Shown here: in pieces, positions 5,795-63,755 of the stretch
Layout: each line of letters starts with the position of its first letter
Position numbering within the stretch: position 1 is the first letter of the stretch
Assembly (NCBI GenBank): GCA_022711495.1
Contig: JAKLEX010000001.1
Span: 225,389-289,388, forward strand
Source of the DNA: Patescibacteria group bacterium
GTDB lineage: Bacteria; Patescibacteriota; Minisyncoccia; Phycocordibacterales; JAACPR01
Length of the DNA: 64,000 nt
Reading direction: 5' to 3'
The notes under the pieces: model-generated
Seen by the model: only the letters and a program-made list of their open reading frames with translations
Databases searched by the model: none
What the model was told of the DNA's origin: nothing
Program-made: the position numbers and the translations under genes

Positions 5795-5965
5795 ATGGAT
5801 ACAAACCCAAAAGACAATATTAATAAGATTTTAAACACCATTCCGATTGTTATCGGAGTGGTCGTGGCTGTCGTAGCTCTTCTTGGCATCGGAAGTATTC
5901 AAGTAATCTTGGCGATGCTGGGAATCGGCTTGTTTAGCACCGCGCTTGGAGAGTTGGTCAGCTAG
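5795..5965 (+). CDS. Small (56 aa) membrane protein, hypothetical
   Basis: ATG at 5795. Single long hydrophobic segment (IPIVIGVVVAVVALLGIGSIQVILAMLGIGLF). Not in the ORF track because it is under 60 aa. Confidence 0.3.
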   Translation: MDTNPKDNINKILNTIPIVIGVVVAVVALLGIGSIQVILAMLGIGLFSTALGELVS

Positions 5966-6051
5966 TCTTATTTACTACTTGAATAATTTCCAAGGACTCT
6001 TTATTTTGAGAGATTTTTTATGTAGCAGAAAGTATTTTTGGTAATTTCTGT

Positions 6052-6057
6052 TATAAT
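6052..6057 (+). promoter_or_regulatory. Extended -10 (TGtTATAAT) 10 nt upstream of lysS ATG (leaderless-type)
   Basis: TGTTATAAT at 6049-6057, ATG at 6067, no Shine-Dalgarno site. Confidence 0.4.
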
Positions 6058-6066
6058 CTATTTATC

Positions 6067-7587
6067 ATGAAAAAAGCAGAAAATTCAGCGCCTAACCGTC
6101 CCGCATCTGGTTCTCCAAAGGCAAGAGACGAGCGTCAAGATCGTCTAAAAAGACTTGAACTAATAAAATCCCTCGGTCTTGTTCCTTACGCTGATCGATT
6201 TGAGAAAACGCATTCAATCGCTCAAACCCGCGAAGCTAAAATGGGCGCCAAAGTCGCCACGGCCGGCCGAATTGTGTTGTTCCGCGACATGGGCAAAGTT
6301 TCTTTCGCTCATTTGCTTGATTTTTCCGGAAAAGTTCAAATCGTTCTAAAAATTGACGAGCTGGGCCAAGAAAATTATAAAAATTTCATTAAGATAATCA
6401 GCCTCGGCGACTTTATTGGTGTTCGGGGCGAGATGTTTAAAACCCAAAAAGGCGAAATTTCCATATTAGTCAAAGAATATGCTTTTTTGAGTAAAGCCTT
6501 GCGGCCTCTGCCGGAGAAATGGCACGGTTTGAAAGATCTTGAGACAAAATACCGCAAACGATATTTGGATTTGATCGCTAATTCGGATACGATGGCGCGA
6601 TTCAATTTCCGCAGTAATTTTATTTGGGAATTAAGAAAGTTTTATCAAGAAAACGGTTTTCTTGAGATTGATACGCCGGTTCTGTCTGGTTCGGCTTCTG
6701 GCGCTTTGGCTAAGCCATTTCAGACTCATTACAACGCTTTGGATCTGGACGTTTACTTACGTATTGCTCCGGAAATTCATTTGAAAGAAGCCGTCGCCGG
6801 GGGCTTTGAAAAGATTTTTGAAGTTGCTCGGGTTTTCCGCAACGAAGGCATGGATGCCAGTCACTTGCAGGAATTTTCAATGGTTGAGCATTACGCGGCT
6901 TATTGGAATTTTGAGGACAACATGAATTTCACCGAAAAGATGCTGACGACGTTGATTAAAAAATTAAAAGGCAGTTTGAAAATCAAAGTTCTAAATCGCG
7001 ACGACCAGCTGATTGAAGTGGATTTTTCTCTGCCTTGGCGTCGAGTCTCTTTTAGAGATTTACTGATGAAAGATTGCGGAATTGATGTTGATAAATGCTC
7101 TGACGCTAAAAGTTTGCGCGAAGCTATAAAGAAAAAGAAAATCGCCATTGAAGATATGGATAAGTTAGGACACGGAAACTTGATGGACGCTTTATATAAG
7201 AAGATTTCTCGTCCGAAGATTATCAATCCGACTTTCTTGATAAATCATCCGACCGATTTATCGCCTTTAGCGCGAAAAAATGACAAAAATCCGCTGGTTA
7301 CTGACCGTTTTCAATTGATTGTCAACGGCTGGGAAATTGTTAACGCTTACAGCGAATTAATTGATCCGATTGATCAGAGAGAAAGATTTGAAAAACAAAC
7401 CGTCGCCAAGAAAGCCGGCGATGAAGAGGCCATGCAGAAGGATGATGAATTTGTTGAAGCAATGGAATATGGCATGCCGCCAGTGTCGGGCTGGGGGATG
7501 GGCATAGAAAGAATCGTGGCTCTTCTGACGGAACAGCCAAATCTGCGCGACGTGGTGATGTTTCCTTTGTTGAAACCGAAAGAGTGA
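6067..7587 (+). CDS. lysS: Lysyl-tRNA synthetase, class II
   Basis: Class II motifs. C-terminal GMPPVSGWGMGIERIVALL...FPLLKP. 506 aa. Confidence 0.95.
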   Translation: MKKAENSAPNRPASGSPKARDERQDRLKRLELIKSLGLVPYADRFEKTHSIAQTREAKMGAKVATAGRIVLFRDMGKVSFAHLLDFSGKVQIVLKIDELGQENYKNFIKIISLGDFIGVRGEMFKTQKGEISILVKEYAFLSKALRPLPEKWHGLKDLETKYRKRYLDLIANSDTMARFNFRSNFIWELRKFYQENGFLEIDTPVLSGSASGALAKPFQTHYNALDLDVYLRIAPEIHLKEAVAGGFEKIFEVARVFRNEGMDASHLQEFSMVEHYAAYWNFEDNMNFTEKMLTTLIKKLKGSLKIKVLNRDDQLIEVDFSLPWRRVSFRDLLMKDCGIDVDKCSDAKSLREAIKKKKIAIEDMDKLGHGNLMDALYKKISRPKIINPTFLINHPTDLSPLARKNDKNPLVTDRFQLIVNGWEIVNAYSELIDPIDQRERFEKQTVAKKAGDEEAMQKDDEFVEAMEYGMPPVSGWGMGIERIVALLTEQPNLRDVVMFPLLKPKE

Positions 7588-7677
7588 ATCTGAAGTCGCT
7601 GGACTCTTAACGATACGGGGCCCGTGCTTTTGTGTTAAAATAATGGCAGTTGGAATTTATAAAGTTAATTTATTTCT

Positions 7678-9036
7678 ATGAACCGTTTTTATAAATTTGG
7701 CTTGATGTTCGTGTTGGCCGCGGCTCTGTTTTTTTCTGCCGCCAGATCAGTCCAAGCCTTGACAATGTGTAGTTTCACTCGAGATTTAACTGTTGGATCA
7801 AGTGGTGAAGATGTTCGCTGTCTGCAGCAATATCTGAATGCGGTTGGTTACACGATTGCTAACACGGGCGCTGGTTCGCTAGGCCAAGAGACAACTTATT
7901 TTGGAAATCTAACGGCACAAGCCGTGGCCAAATGGCAAGCAGGCAACGACATATCGCCGACGGCTGGATATTTTGGCACAATCTCTCGTGCCAGATACGC
8001 GGAGATTTTCCAAAGAGCGAATGATCCGGCCGGAGCCGACGCGCGGGCGGCTATAGCCGAGGCTTCTTCTTATATCGCTGAGGCACGTCGAGCCTTTAAT
8101 CAAGCGGATGGAGATGGGGCCGACCGAACAGAAGATATAATCAAGGCGACGTTTAGTGACTTATCTATTGCTTCCGATTTTTATCAAGATGGTGAATATA
8201 ACAAAGCCGAGGACTCTGCCTTAAGGGCTGTTAGAGGAGCCAAGTATGCTCTCGGGGCTTTAGATGACTCCAAAGATTATGAAGATAATAGGAGCGGGGC
8301 CAAAGAGGTTATTCAGAACACTGAAGACGCAATTAAAGACGCCGAAGATGCTATTGAAGATGCTGAAGAGGCCACAGATGAGTCTGAAGCAGACGATTAT
8401 GACATAGACGGGGCAAAAGATATTTTGGAAGAAGCCCAAGATCTATTGGAAGAATCTCAAGATCTATTAAACGAAGCCGAAGAAGCTTTTGACGATAGGG
8501 ATTATGATGAGGCGATTGACTCGGCCGAAGATGCACTAGCCTTAGCGACAGACGCTCAAGAAATTGCAGAAGATGCCGCAGATATTGCTGACGGGGATAT
8601 TGAATACGAAGACTATGATTCGGATTTTATGGTCCATGATAGTGATGATGACGACGAAAATGCCGTTGATCAAAACGACGAAGATGACGAAGATGATGAT
8701 GAGGACGACGATTCCGCCACGACAGACGATCAAATAACCGGACAGGCAACCTCAACAGTGGATACGTATAATAAAATAGTTCCAACACTGGTTCAAACTT
8801 ATGGCGGTAGTGGCGTGAGCCAAAGTAGCACCGCTAGTGAAAGCGGCACACAAAGTGGCATTGACGCGGGAAGTTCTAGTAATGACTCTGATGAGACAGA
8901 AGAAACTCCAGAGGAAGAGGCCGCTCAAATAAATGACTCCATAATTTATTCTGGTAATTCTGCCGGCGATTGGTATAACAACGGCATCCTTAATCCTGGG
9001 GGCTGTTCTGCGGGGGAATGTTCGTGGGGGACATAA
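7678..9036 (+). CDS. Secreted peptidoglycan-binding-domain protein with polyacidic repeat region (family member 1)
   Basis: Signal peptide. CSFTRDLTVGSSGEDVRCLQQYLNAVGY...YFG...AVAKWQ matches the PG_binding_1 pattern. Long D/E/A-rich repeats (FDDRDYDEAIDSAEDA etc.). Confidence 0.7.
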   Translation: MNRFYKFGLMFVLAAALFFSAARSVQALTMCSFTRDLTVGSSGEDVRCLQQYLNAVGYTIANTGAGSLGQETTYFGNLTAQAVAKWQAGNDISPTAGYFGTISRARYAEIFQRANDPAGADARAAIAEASSYIAEARRAFNQADGDGADRTEDIIKATFSDLSIASDFYQDGEYNKAEDSALRAVRGAKYALGALDDSKDYEDNRSGAKEVIQNTEDAIKDAEDAIEDAEEATDESEADDYDIDGAKDILEEAQDLLEESQDLLNEAEEAFDDRDYDEAIDSAEDALALATDAQEIAEDAADIADGDIEYEDYDSDFMVHDSDDDDENAVDQNDEDDEDDDEDDDSATTDDQITGQATSTVDTYNKIVPTLVQTYGGSGVSQSSTASESGTQSGIDAGSSSNDSDETEETPEEEAAQINDSIIYSGNSAGDWYNNGILNPGGCSAGECSWGT

Positions 9037-9109
9037 TTTTCTCTATTCTTATCTGCATGTTAAAATAATCATGCTTATCAGAAGCATTATTGGTTAATTT
9101 ATTTCAATT

Positions 9110-10315
9110 ATGAATAATCAAAGAAAAATAGTTTGGTTACTGACATTATTAGTTCTGCTTGTTGTTGGTGCGAATATTGCCGAAGCCGCCACGACTTGTA
9201 CTTTTACAAGAGACCTGGCTTTAGGTGATAACGGCGAAGACGTTCGTTGCTTGCAACAGTATTTAAATAGTGCCGGCTACACAATCGCAGCATCGGGCGT
9301 CGGTTCGCCTGGAAACGAAACAAGCTTGTTTAGAACTTTGACGGAGCAAGCGGTGATTAGGTGGCAAACAGCCAACGGTATTTCACCGGCTTCCGGATAC
9401 TTTGGTCCAAAGTCACAAGCAAAATATAATGCACTAATTTCTGGATCAAGTTCTGGCTCAAGTTCCAGCTCATCCGGCAGCTCGTCATCCAGTTCTTCCA
9501 GTAGCTCGTCCGGTTCATCCAGCTCCAGCTCTTCGTCAAGTAGCTCATCAGCTAACTCGGAGAGAAGCGAGGCCGAAGATACAATCTTAGAGGCTGTAGA
9601 CGCCATTTATGATGCCGAAGGGCAAATAGAAGATAGCGATGAAGATGAAGACGATATTGAGGATGCCGAAGAGATGTTAAAAGATGCTCGTGAAAATCTT
9701 TATAATGCCATTGAGGCGTATTTTGACGAAGATTACGATGATGCCATAGATTCAGCCGACGACGCCATTTCAGACGCCGAAGATGCTTATGAACAAGCCG
9801 GCGGGGAATCAGAAGAGGACGAAGCCGAGCAAGCCATTGACGACGCCGAGGACGCCTTAGACGCCGCCGAAGCCGAAATTGAGGAAGCGGACGACGATGG
9901 TGAGGAAGTCGGCGAGGCCGAAGATCTTTTTGACGAAGCTCAAGACTTGTTAGACGAAGCTGAAGAGGCTTTTGATGATGAGGATTATGACGAGGCTATT
10001 GATTTAGCCGAAGAGGCCGAAGATACGGCGGACGAAGCCGTCGACGCTATCGGTGAAGAAGGCGACGATGAAGAATCAGACGCCGAAGAAGCTATTGAAG
10101 ACGCCGAAGATGCCATTGATGCCGCCGAAGAGGCCATTGATGAATCAGACGCGGATGCTGATGACATAGAGGAGGCCGAAGATCTTGTTGACGAGGCTAA
10201 CGATTTGCTAGACGAAGCCGAAGAAGCCTTTGACGACGAAGATTACGACGATGCCATTGACGCTGCTGAAGAAGCTCAAGAAAAAGCCGAAGAAGCCGAA
10301 GATTTGGTTGATTAG
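9110..10315 (+). CDS. Secreted peptidoglycan-binding-domain protein with poly-Ser tract and polyacidic repeats (family member 2)
   Basis: Same N-domain (CTFTRDLALGDNGEDVRCLQQYLNSAGY). Poly-Ser run of about 35 aa. Repeated acidic modules EEAEDLxDEAxDLLDEAEEAFDDEDYDEAID. Confidence 0.7.
   Translation: MNNQRKIVWLLTLLVLLVVGANIAEAATTCTFTRDLALGDNGEDVRCLQQYLNSAGYTIAASGVGSPGNETSLFRTLTEQAVIRWQTANGISPASGYFGPKSQAKYNALISGSSSGSSSSSSGSSSSSSSSSSSGSSSSSSSSSSSSANSERSEAEDTILEAVDAIYDAEGQIEDSDEDEDDIEDAEEMLKDARENLYNAIEAYFDEDYDDAIDSADDAISDAEDAYEQAGGESEEDEAEQAIDDAEDALDAAEAEIEEADDDGEEVGEAEDLFDEAQDLLDEAEEAFDDEDYDEAIDLAEEAEDTADEAVDAIGEEGDDEESDAEEAIEDAEDAIDAAEEAIDESDADADDIEEAEDLVDEANDLLDEAEEAFDDEDYDDAIDAAEEAQEKAEEAEDLVD
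9443..9552 (+). repeat. Poly-serine coding simple-sequence tract (AGY/TCN codon repeats)
   Basis: About 110 nt encoding SSGSSSSSSGSSSSSSSSSSSGSSSSSSSSSSSS. Confidence 0.8.
10061..10315 (+). repeat. 255-bp direct repeat copy 1 (3' end of paralog CDS), ~99% identical to 13128-13382
   Basis: Base-by-base comparison shows only 2 mismatches over 255 nt, including the stop codon. Confidence 0.9.
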
Positions 10316-36934: not shown

Positions 36935-36962
36935 AAAACCCGCCAGATGGCGGGTTTTTTAT
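36933..36962. terminator. Bidirectional rho-independent terminator
   Basis: AAAAAACCCGCC-agat-GGCGGGTTTTTT. Confidence 0.7.
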
Positions 36963-36968
36963 TAAGGT

Positions 36969-37172
36969 TTATTTAACAACGCTAACCTTAACAGCTTGTG
37001 GTCCTTTCTGTCCTTCTACGACTTCAAACTCTACGCTTTCGCCACCTTTTAGTTGGTCGAACTCGACGTTTTGAAGTTCATTTGAATGGAAGAAAAGATC
37101 TTTTTCCGCTCCGTCATATTTGATAAAGCCGTAGCCTTTGTCCATGACGCGAACGATAGTTCCTTTTTGCAT
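36969..37172 (-). CDS. cspA: Cold-shock protein (CspA family)
   Basis: 67 aa. MQKGTIVRVMDKGYGFIKYDG...FFH RNP motifs. Confidence 0.85.
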   Translation of the reverse strand: MQKGTIVRVMDKGYGFIKYDGAEKDLFFHSNELQNVEFDQLKGGESVEFEVVEGQKGPQAVKVSVVK

Positions 37173-37325
37173 CTTTCAATAAACTAAACGAATAAAATCT
37201 CAAATAAACTCACAAAAGATTAAACTCGACTTAGTTCTACTTTGGTAGTTATTTGATAATGAGAAGTATAAATGATTGGCTGGCGCCTGTCAAGCGATAA
37301 CTGGGGAATTCGTGGGCCATGCTTT

Positions 37326-54338: not shown

Positions 54339-54478
54339 GCTCGCTGAAGGCCTGCTCAGCCATTCAGCAACGCAACCGCCGCCTTTTCATTCCGTTTGCA
54401 TTGTAGCAGATTTGCGGGCCCATGTCAATATCTAATATCGCGTAAATCAGTTCAACTCTGTTGTATACTATATCCGTC

Positions 54479-55549
54479 ATGAGAATTGAAGAACAGACTA
54501 AACTTGATTATTCAGATGTTTTGATTCGTCCGAAACGCAGCACTTTGACCTCAAGAAAAGAAGTCGTCCTGGATAGAACTTTTACTTTCTATCATTCTCC
54601 TAAAACCTGGACGGGAATCCCGATTATGTCGGCCAACATGGCGACTTGCGGCACTTTTGGCATGGCTAAAATTTTGGCGCCACTGAAAATTATCACGACC
54701 TTCCATAAATACTATTCAGTTTCTGATTTTGAAAAGTTTTTTCAGACTTTTAATAATCCGGATTATGTTTGCTACACGCTTGGAATTCGCGATGAAGACG
54801 TGGCGAAGATTCAGGAAATGCAGAAAAAAGGTTTGATGAAAAACTTTTCTTTTATTTGTATTGATGTCCCAAACGGCTATTTGCAAAGGTTCTTGGAGAG
54901 CATTCGGCTTATCCGCCAAATGTTTCCGGAGCACATCTTGATTGCGGGCAATGTTGTGACCAACGAGATGACCGAAGAAATAATTTTGGCCGGAGCTGAC
55001 ATCGTCAAAATTGGCATCGGCCCGGGTTCGGCTTGCACGACCAGACGGATGACCGGCGTGGGCTATCCGCAGCTGTCGGCAGTTATTGAATGCGCCGACG
55101 CGGCTCACGGAATTGCCAACGAAAGGGGAGTCGGACGAATCATCGCCGACGGCGGTCAACAATATATTTCTGATATCGCCAAAGCCTTTTGTGCCGGAGC
55201 GGATTTTAATATGTGTGGTTCACTTTTCTCTGGTTTTGATCAAAGTGATGGCAAATTGATAGAAAAAGATGGCAAAAAGTTTAAGGAATATTTTGGCTCC
55301 TCTTCAAATAAAGCTTTGGAAGAATTGTATGGCAAAAAAGACGACCATCGGGCCAGCGAAGGCCGATACGCCTTAATTCCATACAAAGGCGATATAAATA
55401 ATTTTTTGCAAGATTTATTCGGCTCTCTACGAAGCACGGGAACTTACATCGGCGCGCGTCAACTTCGCGAGTTTCCCAAAAGAGCGACTTTTGTGAAAGT
55501 GAACAGACAACTCACGAACTATTTGGAGCCCTATGATACGGGGGAGTAG
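54479..55549 (+). CDS. guaC: GMP reductase
   Basis: MRIEEQTKLDYSDVLIRPKRSTL... and GIGPGSACTTRRMTGVGYPQLSAVIECADAA (IMPDH/GMPR barrel without CBS insert). About 355 aa. TGTTGTATACT box overlaps the ORF-track start 54461. Confidence 0.85.
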   Translation: MRIEEQTKLDYSDVLIRPKRSTLTSRKEVVLDRTFTFYHSPKTWTGIPIMSANMATCGTFGMAKILAPLKIITTFHKYYSVSDFEKFFQTFNNPDYVCYTLGIRDEDVAKIQEMQKKGLMKNFSFICIDVPNGYLQRFLESIRLIRQMFPEHILIAGNVVTNEMTEEIILAGADIVKIGIGPGSACTTRRMTGVGYPQLSAVIECADAAHGIANERGVGRIIADGGQQYISDIAKAFCAGADFNMCGSLFSGFDQSDGKLIEKDGKKFKEYFGSSSNKALEELYGKKDDHRASEGRYALIPYKGDINNFLQDLFGSLRSTGTYIGARQLREFPKRATFVKVNRQLTNYLEPYDTGE

Positions 55550-55557
55550 AAAATAAA

Positions 55558-55590
55558 AACCACCCAAAAAGTCAAACCTTGTTTGGGTGG
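55558..55590. terminator. Bidirectional terminator
   Basis: CACCCAAA...TTTGGGTG hairpin with flanking A/T runs. Confidence 0.5.
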
Positions 55591-55600
55591 ATGGGGATAT

Positions 55601-56026
55601 TCACTGACAGCAGATATTAGGGACATGCATGACATAGGGGCGGGAGCACTTTTCGCAGGTAAACCAGCCGTAGTATTCACCACTTTCCTGGAAAAAACTG
55701 TCGGCGGTTCCGTTATTTGCCGCTTCATGACGGTCGCCTTCACAAGAAGGAAGACCGCTTATTTCCCAATAGCCCGCTGTTTCATCTTGCCTGGTTAGAA
55801 GCTGGCAAAATTCAACGAAGATCGCATGCGCCTCAGCTTCCATTTTCAGGCTTGGATCGAGCTCGTCATCTTTTCTTTTGGGCGACTGCTTTAAAACGCA
55901 TCGCTTAAAATCGGCTCTCAACTTATCGTATTGATGTCTGAAATGTTCATCTGCCAAGAGCGACCAGCAAAGCCGCGCTCTTTTTTCAAAGGCCTCTACG
56001 ACGGCCAAGAACTTGTCAACTTTCAT
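55601..56026 (-). CDS. Hypothetical Cys-containing protein
   Basis: 141 aa. Shine-Dalgarno AAAGGAG. TTGACT-N17-TAATGT promoter at 56066-56094. Confidence 0.4.
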   Translation of the reverse strand: MKVDKFLAVVEAFEKRARLCWSLLADEHFRHQYDKLRADFKRCVLKQSPKRKDDELDPSLKMEAEAHAIFVEFCQLLTRQDETAGYWEISGLPSCEGDRHEAANNGTADSFFQESGEYYGWFTCEKCSRPYVMHVPNICCQ

Positions 56027-56065
56027 GAGCCAACTCCTTTCTTGAATTCGGATTTTTCTTACTAA

Positions 56066-56094
56066 ACATTATAATTACAAAGGCAATTAGTCAA
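56066..56094 (-). promoter_or_regulatory. TTGACT-N17-TAATGT promoter
   Basis: Reverse strand TTGACTAATTGCCTTTGTAATTATAATGT. Confidence 0.45.
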
Positions 56095-56131
56095 ATCCTA
56101 ATCAACTTATTTATGACAAATTTTATCTATA

Positions 56132-56410
56132 ATGATCACCGATAAAAATTGGTCAGATAAGGTCACCAGAAGAAGTAACGCCCTTGATCTAAGAGGTGGT
56201 GTTTTTACTTGGAAAAATCCAAGGAAAATTGCCCTCTCTTTGAAAGAGTCTGCCCTTAAAAGTTCTCGTCGCAGATCTGGCGCATTTGCATCTGCCATGT
56301 CAATGCTGAATTTCTATATAAATCGAGCTGGTAAAAATCTACCGCGGACGCAAAAAAAGATTTTGAAACAGGCCAAGAATGAACTTCGGAGAGTTTTTAA
56401 CCGGATTTAG
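56132..56410 (+). CDS. Small basic hypothetical protein (conserved-hypothetical style, DUF3175-like, tentative)
   Basis: 92 aa, Lys/Arg-rich. SAMSMLNFYINRAGKNL core. Confidence 0.4.
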   Translation: MITDKNWSDKVTRRSNALDLRGGVFTWKNPRKIALSLKESALKSSRRRSGAFASAMSMLNFYINRAGKNLPRTQKKILKQAKNELRRVFNRI

Positions 56411-56429
56411 AAACAAATCAATAATGATA

Positions 56430-56458
56430 TTGACTGTCGCAGATATCTTCGATAATGT
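56430..56458 (+). promoter_or_regulatory. TTGACT-N17-TAATGT promoter
   Basis: TTGACTGTCGCAGATATCTTCGATAATGT followed by Shine-Dalgarno AAGGAGG and the ATG at 56477. Confidence 0.45.
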
Positions 56459-56476
56459 TTGCAAAGGAGGCACATT

Positions 56477-56707
56477 ATGAAACATCCTGATGGCGGAAGG
56501 GAGATTCTTAATTTTTACAGTTCAAGAAATCTCGTTTTAGATTTCTTACGGGACTTATCTACCGGCGAAAAAGTTTGGTTGGCGACGACATTAAGTGCCA
56601 TGGAAATCTACTATCGCCCGGTTACTCTTTTACAGGCAGTTGAACTATGCCAGGAATATCAAGTGGGAGCCGAGGTAATACAGAAGCTTGAGAGTGAGGA
56701 GAGCTGA
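56477..56707 (+). CDS. Hypothetical protein (76 aa)
   Basis: ATG 56477 after a strong Shine-Dalgarno site. The ORF-track start 56459 is a TTG overlapping the -10 box. Terminator hairpin at 56713-56745. Confidence 0.4.
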   Translation: MKHPDGGREILNFYSSRNLVLDFLRDLSTGEKVWLATTLSAMEIYYRPVTLLQAVELCQEYQVGAEVIQKLESEES

Positions 56708-56819
56708 ACCAAATGCGCGACATGTGTGTCGCGCATTTTATTATTAATTTTTTGTTAGAATCCGTGACAGCAAAATAAAAACCGCCCCCAAGACTCGTTT
56801 TTTGGAAGCGGCCCGAATC

Positions 56820-57020
56820 TTACTGCGAAAACAATTCTGAAAATTTCACCCCCTCTTCTTCAGCCCACTTTATTGCTTCAGTGTCGCTTACCGGGACACC
56901 TTCTTCCGCGTCGAGGAACCCATCCTCACAGACCAACAGCGATTTGTGGGGCTTACCCTTAAGCAGGTTTGCAATCCTTCTTCTGGCCGACAACGTTAGC
57001 ATTTGCGGCTCTGCGCTCAT
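56820..57020 (-). CDS. Hypothetical protein (66 aa)
   Basis: Small acidic ORF with promoter-like TTGAGC-N17-TAGTAT upstream. Confidence 0.3.
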   Translation of the reverse strand: MSAEPQMLTLSARRRIANLLKGKPHKSLLVCEDGFLDAEEGVPVSDTEAIKWAEEEGVKFSELFSQ

Positions 57021-57158
57021 ACTTTTCTCCTTTCTCGATTCTGGTCTCTATTTAAATACTACATCAACTCACACAAAAGCTCAAACCCGCTAGATATTAA
57101 GAGATACTAAGGATCTGTTTCTGTTATAATTAAAGAGTTATCAATTTAATCTAAAAAA

Positions 57159-58061
57159 ATGGATCCAACAAAATCAAAAACGACTGCCAGGGACTTTTTT
57201 ATTTATCTAGGAGTTATTATTGGTCTTTATGTCAGCGTTGTTAATTTAATTAATCTTCTTTTTAGTCTGATAAATAAATGGCTACCGGACGTCAACGACT
57301 ACTTCGCCTCTTTTGATGAAGGCGTGAGGATTGCGCTGGCCATTTTGATTATCTTTTTTCCGGCCTTCCTTTATTTATCTCATCTGGCGACGAAAACTTT
57401 AGTTTCAGCGCCAGAAAAAAAGGAAATGTGGATTCGTCGCTGGTCTTATTTCTTAACCCTCTTTTTGTCTGGTCTAGCGATAGCCATTGACCTCTCGTCC
57501 TTGATTTATCGTTTTATCGGCGGGGAAGATTTAACTCCGCGGTTTTTGTTGAAAACCCTTATCGTTTTTCTGGTAGCTCTAGCCATCTTTCGTTTCTATC
57601 TTTATGAACTTCGTCGAGACGTATCTTTACCAACGCCAAAAAGGAAATACTTGCTGTATACGGTTCTGGTTTTCTTTGTTGTCATTGTGATTGGCTCAAT
57701 TATTTCAATTGGTTCACCGACTCAACAAAGGCAGGCTCGTTTTGATTCAGATCGAATTGAGGATCTAACAAATATTTCGTCGGCGATAACTGATTATTAT
57801 CACCAAAACTCTTCTTTACCAGAAAACCTGGTCACTTTGGCAAAATCGGGCGAATACTATACCACAAACAGTATAAATGATCCGGAGACAGCTGAAGAGT
57901 ATGGGTATATTATCGCTAGCTCAAACAGTTATAAACTGTGCGCAACATTTTCTAGGCCGAGTGAAGTGACAAAGTGGACAAATATCTGGGAACATGGCGC
58001 CGGCCTAACCTGTTTTGAGAGAACGATTGGAGAAGAAGTCCTCCCAAAGGCTGTGAAGTAA
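57159..58061 (+). CDS. Polytopic membrane protein with C-terminal pseudopilin-like extracellular domain
   Basis: About 6 TM helices. C-terminal RQARFDSDRIEDLTNISSAITDYYHQNSSLPENL...C..C segment resembles a type II secretion/type IV pilin globular domain. Confidence 0.45.
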   Translation: MDPTKSKTTARDFFIYLGVIIGLYVSVVNLINLLFSLINKWLPDVNDYFASFDEGVRIALAILIIFFPAFLYLSHLATKTLVSAPEKKEMWIRRWSYFLTLFLSGLAIAIDLSSLIYRFIGGEDLTPRFLLKTLIVFLVALAIFRFYLYELRRDVSLPTPKRKYLLYTVLVFFVVIVIGSIISIGSPTQQRQARFDSDRIEDLTNISSAITDYYHQNSSLPENLVTLAKSGEYYTTNSINDPETAEEYGYIIASSNSYKLCATFSRPSEVTKWTNIWEHGAGLTCFERTIGEEVLPKAVK

Positions 58062-58161
58062 ATCTGACTAATCAAATCCTTGGCTTGGTTTTGGGAAAAA
58101 GAAAACCGCCCCCTGAAGGATTTGGTTTTCCTTGAGAGGGGCGGCACGTTTGTCGGCCGGA

Positions 58162-58428
58162 TTAGTTCGGTTTTATCCAGCCGATCACGTATGAGTGCGA
58201 AGCTCCGGAAGAAACGGATTTGATGCCCAAGTCGATGTATCGGCCATTGTCGGTAAACCCGTGTGCAATTGCTCGCATATCCTTTTCGGAGATCTCGGTT
58301 GGGGGACTTATGAGCCTAACACCGCCAAATTCTTTTCCGCCGTCCGTGTCTTCGAGAACGGCTTGTAAGTTTGAACCGACGAAATAAACCTCGTAACCAG
58401 TTACTTCTGTGAACTTAACAAAGATCAT
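58162..58428 (-). CDS. Hypothetical protein (88 aa, re-assigned start)
   Basis: Shine-Dalgarno AAAGGAGG, 6 nt, then ATG at 58428. The ORF-track start 58467 lies inside the -10 hexamer of the promoter. Confidence 0.4.
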   Translation of the reverse strand: MIFVKFTEVTGYEVYFVGSNLQAVLEDTDGGKEFGGVRLISPPTEISEKDMRAIAHGFTDNGRYIDLGIKSVSSGASHSYVIGWIKPN

Positions 58429-58463
58429 ATCAGCCTCCTTTTTGTGTTCCGGTTTCTGTTCCG

Positions 58464-58492
58464 ACATTACCCTAACTCAACAGGGAAGTCAA
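58464..58492 (-). promoter_or_regulatory. TTGACT-N17-TAATGT promoter
   Basis: Reverse strand TTGACTTCCCTGTTGAGTTAGGGTAATGT. Confidence 0.5.
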
Positions 58493-58495
58493 AGT

Positions 58496-58930
58496 CTATT
58501 TCAACAAAATTGATTTGCTCAATAATTTCTTCACTTCTTCTTTGAATCTTTCATGATCTAAATTATTTTCCCTGGCAATTTCATGGAGCTTGTCTATTTT
58601 TTTCGGATTTCGAACCGCAGAGATATTAGAACCCGGCTTAACTCTATTGCCGGCCTTGCGGAAAAGCTTCCATCTAGAAGTATATTTAGGAAACATGTAT
58701 AGCGATCCCCAGAATAGTTTTAGCTTTCCAAACGGAAAAGTTAGCTCACGATGTCCCGACCATCTGGCTCGAGTGTAAGTATAAACGACATCGGCGAGCT
58801 CACTCCACCGGTGAACAAAGCCCTTTGCTTGTAGTAGTTCCTCATATTCACTCTGAATGTCTTGCTTGTGCCAATCAAGAGAATTCTTTCGCATATTTAA
58901 TTTTGTGTGCCAGGCGTGGAAAATTCCCAT
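58496..58930 (-). CDS. Hypothetical protein
   Basis: 144-aa ORF, basic, no motif recognised. Confidence 0.4.
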   Translation of the reverse strand: MGIFHAWHTKLNMRKNSLDWHKQDIQSEYEELLQAKGFVHRWSELADVVYTYTRARWSGHRELTFPFGKLKLFWGSLYMFPKYTSRWKLFRKAGNRVKPGSNISAVRNPKKIDKLHEIARENNLDHERFKEEVKKLLSKSILLK

Positions 58931-59050
58931 GATGGTGCTGTTATATTTCGATGTCGCATTCTATCATATCTTTCATAAATGTCGGCGATTAAGATTTTCC
59001 ATGCCAAGGTCGGTTAGCATTTTCAAAATTTCTTATTATTATTTTTTCCC

Positions 59051-59102
59051 AAAATAAAAACTCGCTAGCTTAAGGACTTGCCCATTCGTCCTGCTAGCGA
59101 GT
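59051..59102 (-). terminator. Rho-independent terminator (minus strand) ending a ~500-nt ORF-poor transcribed region
   Basis: CTCGCTAGC...GCTAGCGAG compound hairpin followed by a U-run on the minus strand. Confidence 0.5.
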
Positions 59103-59564
59103 TTGATCGGTTGGAATACTTTAACCTCCTTGGTATTTTTCTCCGAAATCTCCGCCCGAGTGCTTCGGTGGGGTTGTAGGCCCGCGTCAAAGTGCTATCT
59201 TCGCCATCTCTTCTAGGTTTACCCTATATCATGATGGTTATCTTCGCACAGCCGATTTTCAGCGACTCCTGCCCGTCTCAGGGGCTGGGTCAGATTTTAG
59301 GAGAACTCTCCGTTGTCGCCAGGCGGCATTCCGATTAGACGGCCGCCGGCGAAAAGGAGAGTCAGTTTCCGTATTCCCGAAGGGCGGCGATGTATTCGCG
59401 GCGCGTTCCCAGGAACAGCGTCCCATCCGGCATCCTCCACAACTCTTTCTTCACTCTGACCTCCTTTTCTTGTTACCGACCATGAACTGAATCATCTGTA
59501 CATATTATAGCAGATATGGGAAATCTGTCAAGTATCGGGTGTCGCAGTTAGATTTTTGAGATAT

Positions 59565-59608
59565 TTAAAAAGAAAAGCCCCATCGCGTTCTTAGAAAGCG
59601 ATGGGGCC
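59565..59608 (-). terminator. Rho-independent terminator (minus strand)
   Basis: GCCCCATCGC-loop-GCGATGGGGC followed by a U-run on the minus strand. Confidence 0.6.
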
Positions 59609-59624
59609 TGGGATTGCCCCGATT

Positions 59625-60407
59625 TCACGTCCCGGCAATTACCTTGGCATTTATGTCGGCCAGTTTCTTTAGGGCGCCGTCGACACCGTTTACCACGAAC
59701 ACGTGTTGGTTACCGACCTCGCTCTTTGTTCGCCAAAGAGTTGAGTGGCTGACCTTCTTGTTCATGATGCACCAATTGCACGACGGGGGAGCTTTCTCCC
59801 GATTCCCCTTACCGCCAAAGACCAACTCCAACTGGAATTCACCGGCTTTTTGTCTGACGGCCTCCTCTTGTTTCGGCAGGAATTCAAGAAGAAGAACTCG
59901 CGGGTGTCGTGTGCGGCCAGATGACTCGCGGATCTTTTCCGCGGACCCATTAGTCGTCGGTTCCGTCGCTAGCGGCTTCGGAACTGCTCCCAAAACCTCG
60001 GACGAAGCTACCGCCAGTTTTTCCAGAATCTTGGGAATCGCGCCTACGACTGGGGCCAGCCGGCGAGCCACAATAATCAACAGCTCTTCGGTCGTGATGC
60101 TCGCCAGAATCTCTTCTCGCGGAGTTTCAACCCGGACTTCTTTTTCGATCTGAATTTCGACGGGGTGGGACAAGCTCTCTAGAAACTCGATTCGAGCTTC
60201 TACGAATCTCTGCGTAAGTTCAGAACTTATACCCCTCCGGCCCGTGATCGTCCGTTGCCGGTGTGCGGGAAGGGTTTTCTGCGCTTCGGCGACGAAACTC
60301 CAAAGGTTACTCGTATCTTCCGTGTAGAGTCGCAAAGCCTCTTCGGCGACCTTATGAATTTCTTCGTCGGTCCAAAAGACTCGCGACTTTCTTTTATCTG
60401 CACTCAT
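59625..60407 (-). CDS. Hypothetical protein, GC-rich (260 aa, re-assigned start)
   Basis: Shine-Dalgarno AGGAGAGAG before ATG 60407. The ORF-track start 60464 is the ATG inside the TAATGTC -10 box. About 58% GC. Confidence 0.45.
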   Translation of the reverse strand: MSADKRKSRVFWTDEEIHKVAEEALRLYTEDTSNLWSFVAEAQKTLPAHRQRTITGRRGISSELTQRFVEARIEFLESLSHPVEIQIEKEVRVETPREEILASITTEELLIIVARRLAPVVGAIPKILEKLAVASSEVLGAVPKPLATEPTTNGSAEKIRESSGRTRHPRVLLLEFLPKQEEAVRQKAGEFQLELVFGGKGNREKAPPSCNWCIMNKKVSHSTLWRTKSEVGNQHVFVVNGVDGALKKLADINAKVIAGT

Positions 60408-60460
60408 GAGCTCTCTCCTGGTTGTTTGTATTTGATCTGTCTGTGTCCAATCTGCCCAGG

Positions 60461-60489
60461 ACATTACAACAACTTGATGGGGAAGTCAA
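60461..60489 (-). promoter_or_regulatory. TTGACT-TCCCCATCAA-N-TAATGT promoter
   Basis: Reverse strand TTGACTTCCCCATCAAGTTGTTGTAATGT. Confidence 0.5.
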
Positions 60490-60514
60490 ATAAAAAACCA
60501 CCCATCTATGTGGG

Positions 60515-60708
60515 TGGCGGGGCTGCCGGGATTTGAACCCGGGACCTCCTCCGTATCACGGAAGCACTCTAACCGCGCCGTACAGCATTTTCCCCGCCGT
60601 GCCCTCGAAAGGACTCTTTTGCAGAAGATTGTTCGCAACGTTACCGGTCATATCGCGGGTCTTGCTGCAATTTGGGACAAACACCGTCCGACTCTGAGCT
60701 ACAGCCCC
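60515..60708 (-). tRNA. tRNA-Ile(GAU)-like gene with ~115-nt insertion in the D-loop region (intron-containing or disrupted), CCA encoded
   Basis: Reverse strand 5' GGGGCUG-UA-GCUC-AG... pairs perfectly with 3' ...CAGCCCC-G-CCA. T arm CCGGG-UUCAAAU-CCCGG. Anticodon arm CUUCC-GUGAUAC-GGAGG (anticodon GAU). Variable loop AGGUC. D-stem 3' half GAGU. Total 194 nt instead of about 77. Confidence 0.55.
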
Positions 60709-60791
60709 TCCATACCTTCTGAAGTGGAAGCCTATATCATCTTAGATTTTGTGTCAACTCGTGCTCTATCGGCTAATTAACGGAGTATAAA

Positions 60792-61166
60792 CTATTCAAA
60801 ATTTAACTTTTTTAACGCTTCAGCTGTTTGGCCGACAATATCGGCCCGATGTCTTTCTATAAAATCAGACGTTAGGTCGTCTTGTGTCAGACCCTCGTCT
60901 TTTAAAATTTTTTCTATAACTCTTGCCACTTCAACTCGGTAAAATCGAGCCAGACAATTCTGTGTTCCAATCCACTGGGTCAATCTTTTATCCTGTTCTG
61001 GTGATCCATGAGGGTTCGTCTGAAGCGAGTCTCCCACTCCATAATAGGCATCTGCGACAGCAAATTGGATTTTCAAGGCAGACTTTGAAATTTTATCTAG
61101 AGATCCGCCCAACCGCGCAAGCCTCACTTCTTCGTCCAGATTTTCTTGTGGCATTTTTTCTATCAT
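60792..61166 (-). CDS. Hypothetical protein
   Basis: 124-aa ORF with TATAAT-type -10 upstream. Confidence 0.4.
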   Translation of the reverse strand: MIEKMPQENLDEEVRLARLGGSLDKISKSALKIQFAVADAYYGVGDSLQTNPHGSPEQDKRLTQWIGTQNCLARFYRVEVARVIEKILKDEGLTQDDLTSDFIERHRADIVGQTAEALKKLNFE

Positions 61167-61322
61167 GATGATTCAAATTATATCAGAAATTTGGTTTAGT
61201 CTAACGAAGGAAGATCAAGCCTGTTTGTGTAAAGGAGTAACAGTGTCTCGTGAGAGTTTTGCTGTATAAAAAAAGAAAACCGCCACCTTTTGGGAAGCGG
61301 TTTTGTTTCCAGCGAGTTCTTT

Positions 61323-61664
61323 TTAACCGATTTGAGCATCAAGTTGTTCCATTACAGCAAGGATAATCATCCCGGTAACCAGAGCATGTATTTTAGGGTC
61401 GTATTCTGATATATCAGAATCTGGAATAATTCCCAGTTTTTCTGGCCCAAAGTTGCCGCTGCGGCAACTTATTTTTAACGTCTTTCTGGAATATATATGC
61501 CCGGGCAGGAACAAGCTGAATCGCACAACATCATTCTCAATTGATTGGAACACCAGATCAAATTCAATGCCCTCAATTGTGACCTTGTAGGATTTCTCCA
61601 ACCGGTTATTAGTCATGGCCACAGCGACTTTTTGCGCGAAGGAACAGGAAAGAGCCTTAATCAT
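61323..61664 (-). CDS. Hypothetical protein
   Basis: 113-aa ORF with TTGACT-N16-TAATAT upstream and a terminator downstream at about 61275-61310. Confidence 0.4.
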   Translation of the reverse strand: MIKALSCSFAQKVAVAMTNNRLEKSYKVTIEGIEFDLVFQSIENDVVRFSLFLPGHIYSRKTLKISCRSGNFGPEKLGIIPDSDISEYDPKIHALVTGMIILAVMEQLDAQIG

Positions 61665-61803
61665 TTCTTATCTCCCTTGTTTTGAAGTTTCTGCTTCTGA
61701 TATTAGTTGCTAAAGATTAAAAGTCAACAAAAAAGAAAACCGCCAGATTTTTCCAGCGGTTTCAAGCCCACATATTTTTTGTCAGGCCACTGATGGCCAT
61801 GTT

Positions 61804-62088
61804 TTAATCGTCGTCTTTTATCAGAATCTTTATGCCGAGTTTTTCCAGGCCCCTTTTTGTCTCTCGCCATCTTTTTTCCATCTCTTCAGGAGACCAGAAA
61901 CTTCCCGGTTTGGCCTCATCGGGCTTTAGGGCCTTTGCAATTGGACTAGATTGAGAATCACTTGAGGCCCTCATCACAGAAATCTTTCTGTTAATTTCCA
62001 CATGCGTTCTGAGAGCCTCTGTCCCATCCAGTTTTTCTCTAACTATCCGTTGTGCCGCCTGGTAAGATCCGCCTAGCCAGATTGACAT
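61804..62088 (-). CDS. Hypothetical protein
   Basis: 94 aa. Shine-Dalgarno AAAGGAG. Promoter with TCCCCATCAA box. Confidence 0.4.
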   Translation of the reverse strand: MSIWLGGSYQAAQRIVREKLDGTEALRTHVEINRKISVMRASSDSQSSPIAKALKPDEAKPGSFWSPEEMEKRWRETKRGLEKLGIKILIKDDD

Positions 62089-62123
62089 AAAAAACTCCTT
62101 TCAATGTTCAGATTTCTATTTTG

Positions 62124-62152
62124 ACATTATATCAGTTTGATGGGGAAGTCAA
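62124..62152 (-). promoter_or_regulatory. TTGACT-TCCCCATCAA-N-TAATGT promoter
   Basis: Reverse strand TTGACTTCCCCATCAAACTGATATAATGT. Confidence 0.5.
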
Positions 62153-62228
62153 TTAAATTAAAAAGGCGAGAAATTGATTTTTATTTTCAATTCCCCGCCT
62201 TGTTGAACTGCGCTTTTACGACGGGAGT

Positions 62229-62441
62229 CTAGCTACCAATATCCGTATCGATGCTCCCATCGTGCCCGATGCTGGTTACGATATGTGCCGGGACGCCATC
62301 CTTCCCGTGATCGAAATGATCCACGATATCGACGTGATCCCCCCGGTGTTGGATCTGCGTCAAGTGATCGGGAGTTCCGATGTTTATCGTCTGCCCGGGA
62401 CCGATACTGCCCAAGTTGGGACCCTGCATTTTGATCACCAT
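62229..62441 (-). CDS. Small His-rich hypothetical protein (possible metal-binding)
   Basis: 70 aa, DHVDIVDHFDHGKDG. GC-rich patch. An overlapping plus-strand 88-aa ORF is the alternative. Confidence 0.25.
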   Translation of the reverse strand: MVIKMQGPNLGSIGPGQTINIGTPDHLTQIQHRGDHVDIVDHFDHGKDGVPAHIVTSIGHDGSIDTDIGS

Positions 62442-62462
62442 CCTTTCTGTGTCTACCGACGT

Positions 62463-62846
62463 TTACCAACCGTAATACTTCTTACTAAAGGCCTTTTCCA
62501 TCTCAGCAATCTTATCTCCAAGTCTTGAGAACTCATCAAACTTACTGCTCATATGCCAGTTTTCATCACCACTCTTTTCCATCTCATTAAGCTCTCTGGA
62601 TATTCGGGCCCGTTCTTTATTGGCCTCATCAATCGCTTTTTGATCCCTTTCTTTTTGCGTCTTACAGTCAGAACAAGTCGTCCAGTTGTCCCCGATTACA
62701 TGAGTCGATTTGCCAGTGTCTTTTTCGCACACCTTGCACTTGATTGGCATCGGCTTTTCAACAATGCGCCCCTCAATTGCTTCCGGTGTCCAGCTTATGT
62801 GTTTTAGTTCCGGTATTGGCGATCCGCTAAACCAGTTTATGCTCAT
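62463..62846 (-). CDS. Zinc-ribbon hypothetical protein
   Basis: CKVCEKD...CSDCK tetracysteine motif. Coiled-coil C-terminus. Confidence 0.4.
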   Translation of the reverse strand: MSINWFSGSPIPELKHISWTPEAIEGRIVEKPMPIKCKVCEKDTGKSTHVIGDNWTTCSDCKTQKERDQKAIDEANKERARISRELNEMEKSGDENWHMSSKFDEFSRLGDKIAEMEKAFSKKYYGW

Positions 62847-63026
62847 CGTCGCCCGTCCTTTCTTTTAAAGAACAGTTATTCTAGTCTAGTAGTAAATCTA
62901 CCACTTTTAATAATTTTGTCTAAATACGGCCGTTATTTTGTATAGTATTTTTATGAACCCCAAGAAAGACTTGATTTATAGCCATATTATAATATAGTAG
63001 AAGTTGACCTTTTTACCGACAAATAT

Positions 63027-63755
63027 ATGATAATAGAAAAATTAAAGTCTTTTGGCCTAACAGAAAAAGAAGCGAAAGTTTACATGGCCATTTTGGAGCT
63101 TGGTGAGACTAACGTCCAAAGAATTTCAAACAAGTCAAAAATCAAACGAACAACCTTATACGATATTTTAGATTTACTAAAGGAAAAGGGGTTGATTAGT
63201 TCAACAATAAAAAATAAGAAAAAATATTTTATAGCGTCTGATCCAAGAGAATTAGAGTCAAAACTTGAAGAAAGAAAAACAACTATTAAGTCAATTATTC
63301 CATATTTGCTCTCGATAACTAATTTGATTGATAACAAACCGAAAATTAGATTTTTTGAAGGGGATGAGGGGATAAAGGAAATCTATCTAGATACTCTAAA
63401 ATATCCAGATAATCCGATTTGGGCTTGGGTAACAGAAGAAATTTGGCAAGTTATTGACCAAGACTTTATTGATTATTATCTGAACCAGAGAGTTAAGAAA
63501 AAAATTTGGGCCTATGTTATCGCGCCAGACAAAGAACAGATTCAAACATATAAATCAGAGGATTCAAGATTTTTACGACAAACTAGAATAGATCGTGGTG
63601 AAGGATTTAGTATTCAGGTTGAAATAGATCTATATGGAGAGAATAAAATCGGTGTTATGGCTTTTAAGGAAAAAATTGGGCTGATAATCGAAAGTCAAAA
63701 GATTTTTAATACTCTAAAAAGCATTTTTGATTCCGCTTGGCGAAATTTGGAGTAG
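63027..63755 (+). CDS. TrmB-family transcriptional regulator (winged HTH)
   Basis: N-terminal LKSFGLTEKEAKVYMAILELGETNVQRISNKSKIKRTTLYDILDLLKEKGLI matches the TrmB HTH pattern. Confidence 0.65.
   Translation: MIIEKLKSFGLTEKEAKVYMAILELGETNVQRISNKSKIKRTTLYDILDLLKEKGLISSTIKNKKKYFIASDPRELESKLEERKTTIKSIIPYLLSITNLIDNKPKIRFFEGDEGIKEIYLDTLKYPDNPIWAWVTEEIWQVIDQDFIDYYLNQRVKKKIWAYVIAPDKEQIQTYKSEDSRFLRQTRIDRGEGFSIQVEIDLYGENKIGVMAFKEKIGLIIESQKIFNTLKSIFDSAWRNLE

Follow-up and report, generated by a model that had tools for sequence, protein, structure and literature searches.

The stretch between 55.6 and 62.9 kb of the window, the 64-kb piece of a Candidatus Paceibacterota (Candidate Phyla Radiation, CPR) chromosome that we analyzed, raises the question of whether the small genes packed into it have anything in common in the way that they are expressed. 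The stretch is bounded by a GMP reductase gene (54461-55549; all coordinates are window positions) and a gene for a TrmB-family regulator (63027-63755), and it contains about 13 transcription units, nearly all of them single-gene. Their proteins are mutually unrelated (nothing below E = 0.05 in an all-against-all BLASTP comparison). We found that eight of the units use one sigma-70-type promoter family, with five exact and three looser members. We concluded that the stretch is a lineage-specific cluster of mostly independent single-gene units and that the finding is a local promoter family made of ordinary parts, which is evidence neither for a new mechanism nor for a mobile or defense element.

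An exact pattern scan for TTGACT-N17-TAATGT returned five matches in the window, at the coordinates and on the strands already listed in an earlier interpretation of the letters alone (here called the sequence-only reading; Table 1). There were no matches in 100 dinucleotide-preserving shuffles of the window. When one mismatch was allowed, we recovered the same five sites, with 0.36 expected. Exact protein matches put the window on a 552-kb contig of a Candidatus Paceibacterota metagenome-assembled genome (JGI Ga0116241_10000024; NCBI DAOTCY010000001.1, GCA_035453345.1, 552,584 bp; locus tags P5328_02045 to 02100). We extended the sample by 8.3 kb upstream and 6.4 kb downstream in the same genome, to 78.7 kb, and found no further sites, and all five lie within 6.1 kb.

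The units of the family share a design. The -35 element TTGACT is followed by a 17-bp spacer (16 to 18 bp in the looser members), the -10 element TAAT[G/A]T, and a purine-rich leader of about 20 to 55 nt with a strong Shine-Dalgarno site, AAAGGAG[G], 6 to 8 nt before the ATG; then come a small open reading frame (ORF) and an intrinsic terminator that abuts the next promoter. From each exact site it is 21 to 55 nt to a downstream Shine-Dalgarno site and ATG, and most of the sites follow immediately after the terminator of the preceding gene. The sequence-only reading had placed AAAGGAG(G) in all five exact leaders; we found it in four of them, and the p260 leader has only AGGAG. Taken as sigma-70 elements, the -35 hexamers are near TTGACA (TTGACT in the five exact sites and p113, TTGACA in the 30-amino-acid [30-aa] ORF unit), and the spacers are 17 ± 1 bp long (17 in the exact sites and p66, 16 in p113, and 16 or 18 in the 30-aa ORF unit). 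The -10 hexamers TAATGT, TAATAT, and TAGTAT all fit TAnnnT and keep T-12, A-11, and T-7. Hexamers and spacing thus support the view that the sites are genuine, related sigma-70-type promoters before unrelated small genes.

We compared the family with 14 other TTGAC-type promoter-like sites that precede genes in the 78.7 kb. Their -10 elements are TATAAT, TATACT, TACAAT, TAAAAT, TAGGCT, and similar hexamers, and none is TAATGT, which bears out the earlier claim that this -10 differs from the TATAAT/TATACT of core genes. TAATGT is present at 5 of 8 promoters inside the stretch and 0 of 14 outside (Fisher's exact test, p = 0.002), and TAAT[GA]T is present at 7 of 8 and 0 of 14 (p = 5e-5); these promoters, all with a TTGAC-type -35, were hand-picked by eye from regular-expression matches, and the denominators are not an independent annotation. 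Could the family be a chance resemblance among the ordinary promoters of an AT-rich genome? TTGACn and TAnnnT hexamers abound in this genome, and the 78.7 kb contain 15 sites with N17 spacing. However, not one of the shuffles contained even a single match, TAATGT is absent from the 14 outside promoters and from all 17 TTGAC[AT]-N17-TAnnnT sites in 292 kb of related Patescibacteria loci, and the p94 and p260 promoters are alike at 26 of 30 positions. Chance resemblance is effectively refuted. Nor is the motif ubiquitous within the 14% of the genome that was sampled; ubiquity is what the sequence-only reading had regarded as fatal to its proposal.

Full -35/-10 promoters occur about once per 17 kb in the related Patescibacteria loci, versus once per 5 kb in the genome of the window. 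In two relatives that carry p144 (L182 and L184; guanine-plus-cytosine [GC] content, 33 to 35%), many genes lack a Shine-Dalgarno site and have TATAAT about 7 to 10 nt ahead of the ATG, which probably makes their transcripts leaderless. Elsewhere in the window, a TTGACA-17-TATACT consensus promoter about 100 nt upstream of a cold-shock-protein gene (36935-37293, minus strand) gives that gene a long 5' untranslated region (UTR).

The likeness between units continues into the leaders. The motif AGAAAYCNGAAY is common to the leaders of p141, p66, p88, and p94, where it occupies about +1 to +12, just before the strong Shine-Dalgarno site, at the same distance in all four from the -10 element and from the Shine-Dalgarno site. 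We found that the pattern A[AG]A[AG]A[CT]CNGAA[CT] has four matches in the 78.7 kb, all within leaders of the stretch; because the pattern was derived from the same four leaders, only the absence of further matches is informative. Core-unit leaders also score higher among themselves than against control leaders (Mann-Whitney p = 1e-5; the set was chosen post hoc).

Three of the exact promoters, the TCCC promoters of p94, p260, and p88, are the top repeat family of the region (family D1). The near-identity that the sequence-only reading reported for the promoters of p260 (60461) and p94 (62124) held, and the positions that they share include the 16-nt TTGACTTCCCCATCAA; TTCCCCATCAA occurs in the window only at these two promoters. 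The p88 promoter (58464) shares TTGACTTCCC and TAATGTC with both, which agrees with its earlier description as a diverged copy. The best promoter pair reaches 86% identity over 35 nt. Within these promoters, the candidate box TCCCCATCAA was seen only twice in the window, plus one diverged copy. We found no other box copies in the window at one mismatch or fewer over 11 nt beyond chance, and the enrichment of CCCCATC (11 matches versus 6.6 expected) was not significant. Read by eye, TTGAC...ATCAA forms an inverted repeat, though an imperfect one, whose half-site centers are about 11 bp apart. A protein-binding role for the candidate box is possible. Most simply, the TCCC subfamily would be the youngest layer of promoter reuse in the cluster.

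We also looked for the box outside this genome. The exact 16-nt box has 24 matches in IMG/VR; since none is followed by TAATGT, we regard these as chance matches. A metagenome scan for TTGACTTCCC-N13-TAATGTC gave 68 matches, none related to this genome and none encoding relatives of the proteins of the stretch, in a collection that apparently does not hold the genome. On a soil contig of 74% GC (L116, Ga0066905_100000001, positions 5893-9686; also L148 and L174), three highly similar promoters, TTGACTTCCCnCGG...CCG(G/T)GTAATGTCTCTCTTGTC, lie within 4 kb, each followed by a Shine-Dalgarno site and ATG. They are an unrelated system, probably actinobacterial or actinophage, that matches the search pattern by accident.

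Is the identity of the hexamers simply what recent copying left behind? All 12 hexamer bases are identical in the five exact promoters, including four positions that vary in the other promoters of the genome (-35 position 6 and -10 positions 3 to 5). The bases held there are nonconsensus ones, T at -35 position 6 and ATG at -10 to -8. The p141 and p76 spacers are like the other spacers at 2 to 7 of 17 positions, which is the random level, and two of the five exact promoters are entirely without the box. Identical hexamers beside randomized spacers argue for selection on the exact hexamers and not for recent copying alone. Retention of the exact nonconsensus bases likewise points to functional constraint and is therefore compatible with coregulation.

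The promoters of p260 orthologues give a view of the age of the family. The orthologue with 48% amino acid identity has TTGACT-N17-TAATAT, and the one with 47% identity has ...TAATAT on a contig that ends before the -35 and a leader that shares CAAACAACCAG with the window. An orthologue with 38% identity has TTGACG-N17-TATACT, and two further ones have TTGACG-N17-CAAAAT and TTGACA-N17-TATTAT. Because the two closest orthologues keep a TAAT-type -10, the p260 promoter type may be old in the lineage. The box TCCCCATCAA is in none of these five readable promoters, one of which is the promoter cut off before its -35.

Taking these data together, we favor with about even confidence a primary-sigma promoter family with shared leaders, which would provide matched, independent expression of a lineage-specific small-gene cluster and whose hexamers would be under selection. 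RNA polymerase with the primary sigma factor would read these promoters, given that T-12, A-11, and T-7 are kept, the -35 is near consensus, and the spacing is optimal. The unrelated small proteins would then be expressed strongly and at matched levels, gene by gene, and the family would have grown by promoter reuse within the cluster, with the TCCC trio as its youngest layer. Since the -35, the spacing, and the key -10 positions are canonical, the promoters do not call for an alternative sigma factor. We found no sigma-factor or CsrA gene within the 78.7 kb.

Several points weigh against this proposal. The p94 and p260 spacers differ at four positions, all of them among the last 7 of the 17 (p = 35/2380 = 0.015), a modest hint at constraint on TCCCCATCAA itself that could equally reflect a copied short tract. 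The whole promoter-plus-leader modules of about 70 nt are only 53 to 62% identical, which does not demonstrate common descent of the whole module. The 78.7 kb cover 14% of the 552-kb genome, which leaves confinement to one locus unproven. Finally, we know of no requirement of the primary sigma factor alone for exact conservation of weakly constrained positions, and exact conservation beyond that need leaves room for a dedicated factor.

Such a factor would make the promoters a true regulon. Either a repressor or activator would bind TTGAC-N6-ATCAA (the TCCCCATCAA box over the -35 and the upstream part of the spacer), or a second sigma-70-family factor would have its optimum at TTGACT/TAATGT, and the small-protein genes would be switched on or off together. 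We consider this, the main rival, unlikely, if well short of negligible. The invariant nonconsensus bases between otherwise randomized spacers would be explained by it, as would the avoidance of the box by the p94/p260 mismatches, the imperfect inverted repeat, the tight clustering of the sites beside a TrmB-family regulator, and the 5'-UTR motif common to four leaders. Against it, the box is present only twice with one diverged copy and is missing from two of the five exact promoters and from the promoters of the p260 orthologues, and the -35, the spacing, and T-12/A-11/T-7 are canonical for the primary sigma factor. The 78.7 kb encode neither a sigma factor nor CsrA, and by eye, with no tool search, we saw in these promoters no TACT-N7/8-AGTA palindrome of the TrmB operator kind. 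Whether the exact hexamers, and in a subset the TTGAC-N6-ATCAA box, are read by a second sigma-70-family protein or a small repressor that would control a compact regulon of small, mostly lineage-specific proteins is similarly doubtful.

The sequence-only reading went further and saw here a coregulated, horizontally acquired module, perhaps the remnant of an integrated element or a defense- or toxin-like island. Coregulation is compatible with the exact conservation of the hexamers; horizontal acquisition found no support. A decayed integrated element (a prophage, integrative element, or defense island) inserted near a tRNA gene might have kept the standardized promoters of its donor. The many small unannotated genes, with a per-gene GC content of 40 to 56% (45 to 58% had been claimed), would fit such an origin, and so would a rearranged tRNA-like gene inside the stretch, the lack of synteny with relatives, and the p144 homologues that lie near restriction-modification, PIN, and AbiEii genes in two relatives. 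The tRNA had been described, with TrmB, as a flank of the stretch; TrmB is indeed a neighbor, but the tRNA-like gene (60515-60712, minus strand) is inside the stretch and not at its edge.

Against a decayed element, Pfam, PHROGs, and NCBIfam searches of the unannotated ORFs of the stretch found no integrase, recombinase, transposase, or phage hallmark gene. No att-type repeats, no significant PHROG or PADLOC match, and no Pfam defense or toxin family were found. PADLOC gave only weak coiled-coil noise (p127 versus ZorA, E = 5e-4 over 60 residues). IMG/VR held no relatives of the stretch, and tblastn and blastn searches of phage and plasmid collections gave no matches, with the sole exception of a 57-nt match to the DUF3175 gene. 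The stretch holds families that are conserved across Paceibacteria (the p144 family, DUF5671, and the p260 family), and the window has other 57%-GC genes without a family match outside the stretch. A terminator follows each gene individually, an arrangement that is, as far as we know, not usual in phage early regions.

One repeat resembles a boundary. D5 is a 26-nt direct repeat with 77% identity (55541-55566, at the GMP-reductase/p141 terminator, and 60479-60504, at the terminator/promoter junction beside the tRNA-like gene), as a decayed element might have left. However, both copies are terminators with the same CCACCCA/TGGGTGG stem, not tRNA sequence, and they are probably related terminators rather than att sites; the repeat search found no repeat of tRNA sequence and no other boundary-like repeat. 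We also considered transposon ends, and by our own estimate the inverted repeat I4 (55541/62175) does not exceed what chance would produce. All of these data taken together make a decayed element improbable.

The stretch is identical in every assembly recovered. We fetched four copies, from four samples, and all of them match the window at 100% identity. In the 90%-identity clusters, members of the same gene differ only in the start codon that was called, and there are no strain variants. Because all copies are identical, the population data are uninformative. The nearest genomes have GMP reductases of 70 to 80% identity, none of the genes of the stretch, and none of its flanking genes. Among 80 genomes compared for synteny around GMP reductase, none has genes of the stretch nearby; in one relative, a TrmB-like gene lies 2.7 kb downstream. 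The loci whose p144 is 69% identical have nothing but p144 in common with the stretch. The region is thus nonsyntenic in the nearest relatives available, in agreement with the sequence-only reading, and its "accessory" status is plausible.

Table 1. Genes, promoters, and leader motifs of the stretch, in order of window position
Feature	Coordinates	Strand	Remarks
p141, 141 aa	55601..56026	-	Cys-rich C terminus; no family match
Leader motif AAAAATCCGAAT (p141)	56046..56057	-	Pattern match
p141 promoter	56066..56094	-	TTGACT-N17-TAATGT; spacer unrelated to those of the other promoters
DUF3175 protein, 92 aa	56132..56410	+	Pfam E = 5e-38
p76 promoter	56430..56458	+	TTGACT-N17-TAATGT; short 21-nt leader with AAAGGAGG
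p76, 76 aa	56477..56707	+	No family match; terminator 56711-56738
p66, 66 aa	56820..57020	-	No family match; absent from NCBI annotation
Leader motif AGAGACCAGAAT (p66)	57038..57049	-	Pattern match
p66 promoter, looser	57056..57084	-	TTGAGC-N17-TAGTAT; carries shared leader motif
DUF5671 membrane protein, 300 aa	57159..58061	+	Own extended -10-like promoter (TGTTATAAT), outside the family
p88, 88 aa	58162..58428	-	No family match
Leader motif AGAAACCGGAAC (p88)	58446..58457	-	Pattern match
p88 promoter	58464..58492	-	TTGACTTCCCTGTTGAGTTAGGGTAATGT(C); diverged TCCC-subfamily member (repeat family D1, 69%)
p144, 144 aa	58496..58930	-	MazG-like all-alpha NTP pyrophosphohydrolase fold
30-aa ORF, GTG start	59362..59454	-	AAAGGAGG upstream; in no annotation
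30-aa ORF promoter, looser	59502..59531	-	TTGACA-N16-TATAAT (12/12, with TG) or TTGACA-N18-TAATAT
p260, 260 aa	59625..60407	-	N-terminal helical domain (WTxEE...RQR) and C-terminal DUF2325-like Rossmann-type domain
p260 promoter	60461..60489	-	TTGACTTCCCCATCAAGTTGTTGTAATGT(C); directly after terminator of tRNA-like gene
tRNA-Ile(GAU)-like gene	60515..60712	-	D-loop insertion of ~119 nt; promoter TTGACA-N17-TAGGCT, 60729-60757; terminator 60497-60518
p124, 124 aa	60792..61166	-	No family match; TATAAT 10 nt before ATG; not in promoter family
p113, 113 aa	61323..61664	-	No family match
p113 promoter, looser	61700..61727	-	TTGACT-N16-TAATAT; leader CAGAAGCAGAAAC..GGGAG
p94, 94 aa	61804..62088	-	No family match
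Leader motif AGAAATCTGAAC (p94)	62106..62117	-	Pattern match
p94 promoter	62124..62152	-	TTGACTTCCCCATCAAACTGATATAATGT(C); 26/30 positions as in p260 promoter
Two-gene unit, p127 and 66-aa ORF	62229..62846	-	Promoter TAGACA-N16-TAGATT-like, outside the family

What do the genes encode? Pfam searches of all unannotated ORFs of the stretch found only DUF3175 and DUF5671; PHROGs, PADLOC, and NCBIfam searches of its proteins gave nothing significant, and PDB sequence searches gave nothing. The sequence-only reading had called the small genes unannotatable. This is right for several, which match no family, and wrong for the DUF3175 and DUF5671 genes, for p144, and for p260. In the DUF3175 gene, 57 nt (56290-56346) are 87.7% identical to a 1.98-Mb Ralstonia replicon in the plasmid collection, a match that may hint at gene exchange between phyla. 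The p124 mRNA is nearly leaderless, given the position of its TATAAT. In the two-gene unit, p127 (62463-62846) has CxxC...CxxC and a coiled coil, and the 66-aa ORF directly downstream (62229-62429, minus strand) is His/Asp-rich with 56% GC and was called by JGI and not by NCBI.

p144 is MazG-like and belongs to a family conserved in Paceibacteria. Its AlphaFold model (pLDDT, 95.7) is a four-helix all-alpha fold with the metal-binding motif ExxE...ExxD, as in MazG-like proteins, and E28, E31, E44, and D47 of this motif are invariant in 49 sequences. Taken by itself, the Foldseek result was not significant. We found 87 homologues, all hypothetical and most on unnamed metagenome contigs; the few named ones are from Paceibacterota, Nomurabacteria, or Patescibacteria group organisms.

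p260 belongs to an unnamed family of proteins of about 250 aa, for which an exhaustive profile search found 332 representatives (50% clustering) at E <= 1e-3. Its N-terminal helical domain is conserved (RVxWTxEE...AQxVLPxxRQR), and two family members match DUF2325. In the p260 model (pLDDT, 88.7), this domain is joined to a Rossmann 2x2 or PTS-IIB-like C-terminal domain. We considered p260 as an autoregulator with a Myb-like domain, since FW[TS]xEE is common to p260 and p94. We rejected this candidate: the BLASTP match has E = 0.03 over 26 residues, and a fold search with the p260 AlphaFold model found no significant DNA-binding match. A profile search for p260 homologues on long contigs returned only three proteins. 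Downstream of one homologue (P0002), a sequence at L177 4600-4740 was judged by eye to be like a SAM-I (S-box) riboswitch.

In the tRNA-Ile(GAU)-like gene, the 7-bp acceptor stem is perfect, and a T arm and an anticodon arm are present. The gene escapes ARAGORN at default settings and Rfam at the gathering threshold because its D-loop is interrupted by about 119 nt. At its 3' end, the insertion resembles a degenerate second copy of the 5' part of the tRNA (GGGGAAAATGCTGTA..GGTTAGAGTG). Rfam gave a weak tmRNA match (E = 3e-4) and no other match below E = 10, so we rejected a group I or II intron or ribozyme. We also rejected a repeated element, as there are no other copies in the 78.7 kb. The fold of the insertion is not significant (z-score, -1.15). 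According to a 2026 survey (PMC13011429), tRNA introns in Patescibacteria lie in the anticodon loop, and 4,934 bacterial genomes yielded just one intron in the D-loop, of group II. Possible readings of the tRNA-like gene are a pseudogene, a scar left by rearrangement, and a small intervening sequence of a kind not yet described.

The unit with the 30-aa ORF (59045-59531, minus strand) is an orphan that is in no annotation, with a perfect consensus promoter, TTGACA-16-TATAAT with TG. After the ORF come about 300 nt of ORF-free sequence of 52% GC that end at a strong terminator. This untranslated part folds with z = -4.27 (0 of 100 shuffles as good; the figure includes the terminator hairpin) and has no Rfam match. 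It could be a structured noncoding RNA or a long 3' UTR.

That about eight neighboring small genes have their own copies of one promoter suggests matched or joint expression. We know of few if any descriptions of transcriptional regulons in the CPR, and a literature search found none; how CPR/Patescibacteria regulate their genes has hardly been explored, and for most of their small proteins no function is known. The promoter family marks unrelated small genes that the cell probably expresses together, and the marked set would be a defined target for metatranscriptomics, promoter-swap, or pull-down work. If a dedicated factor does read these promoters, they would form a compact regulon in a Paceibacterota episymbiont, switched, for example, by host contact or stress.

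How does the family compare with known systems? Like tRNA-linked islands and prophage remnants, the stretch has small unknown genes of heterogeneous composition, is nonsyntenic, and contains a tRNA-like gene. In contrast to them, it has no integrase, tRNA-derived att repeats, or phage or plasmid homologues; its tRNA-like gene is in the middle, and it includes lineage-conserved families. What resembles transcription factor regulons with an operator in the spacer or over the -35 is the 10- to 16-nt box, which two promoters carry at the same fixed position and a third carries in diverged form, and which contains an imperfect inverted repeat. Here, however, there are only two or three sites, the box is not conserved in orthologous promoters, and two members are without it. 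The putative mobile promoters of Matus-Garcia, Nijveen, and van Passel (2012, PMC3488235) are likewise homologous promoters before nonhomologous genes within one genome. By their definition, they require 50 to 100 nt of upstream sequence at 80% identity or more, whereas our copies reach 86% over 35 nt at best and 53 to 62% over 70 nt and are local, not dispersed. The family thus falls outside that definition and resembles a similar phenomenon at a shorter scale. In layout, the sites resemble canonical primary-sigma (sigma-70/sigma-A) promoters, with which they share five of six consensus bases in TTGACT, the 17-bp spacer, T-12/A-11/T-7, and a position 21 to 55 nt upstream of a Shine-Dalgarno site and ATG. 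Lambda PR (TTGACT-N17-GATAAT) has the same -35 hexamer. What sets the present promoters apart from the canonical form is the middle of the -10, which is ATG and not TAA, is identical in five promoters, and is confined to one cluster.

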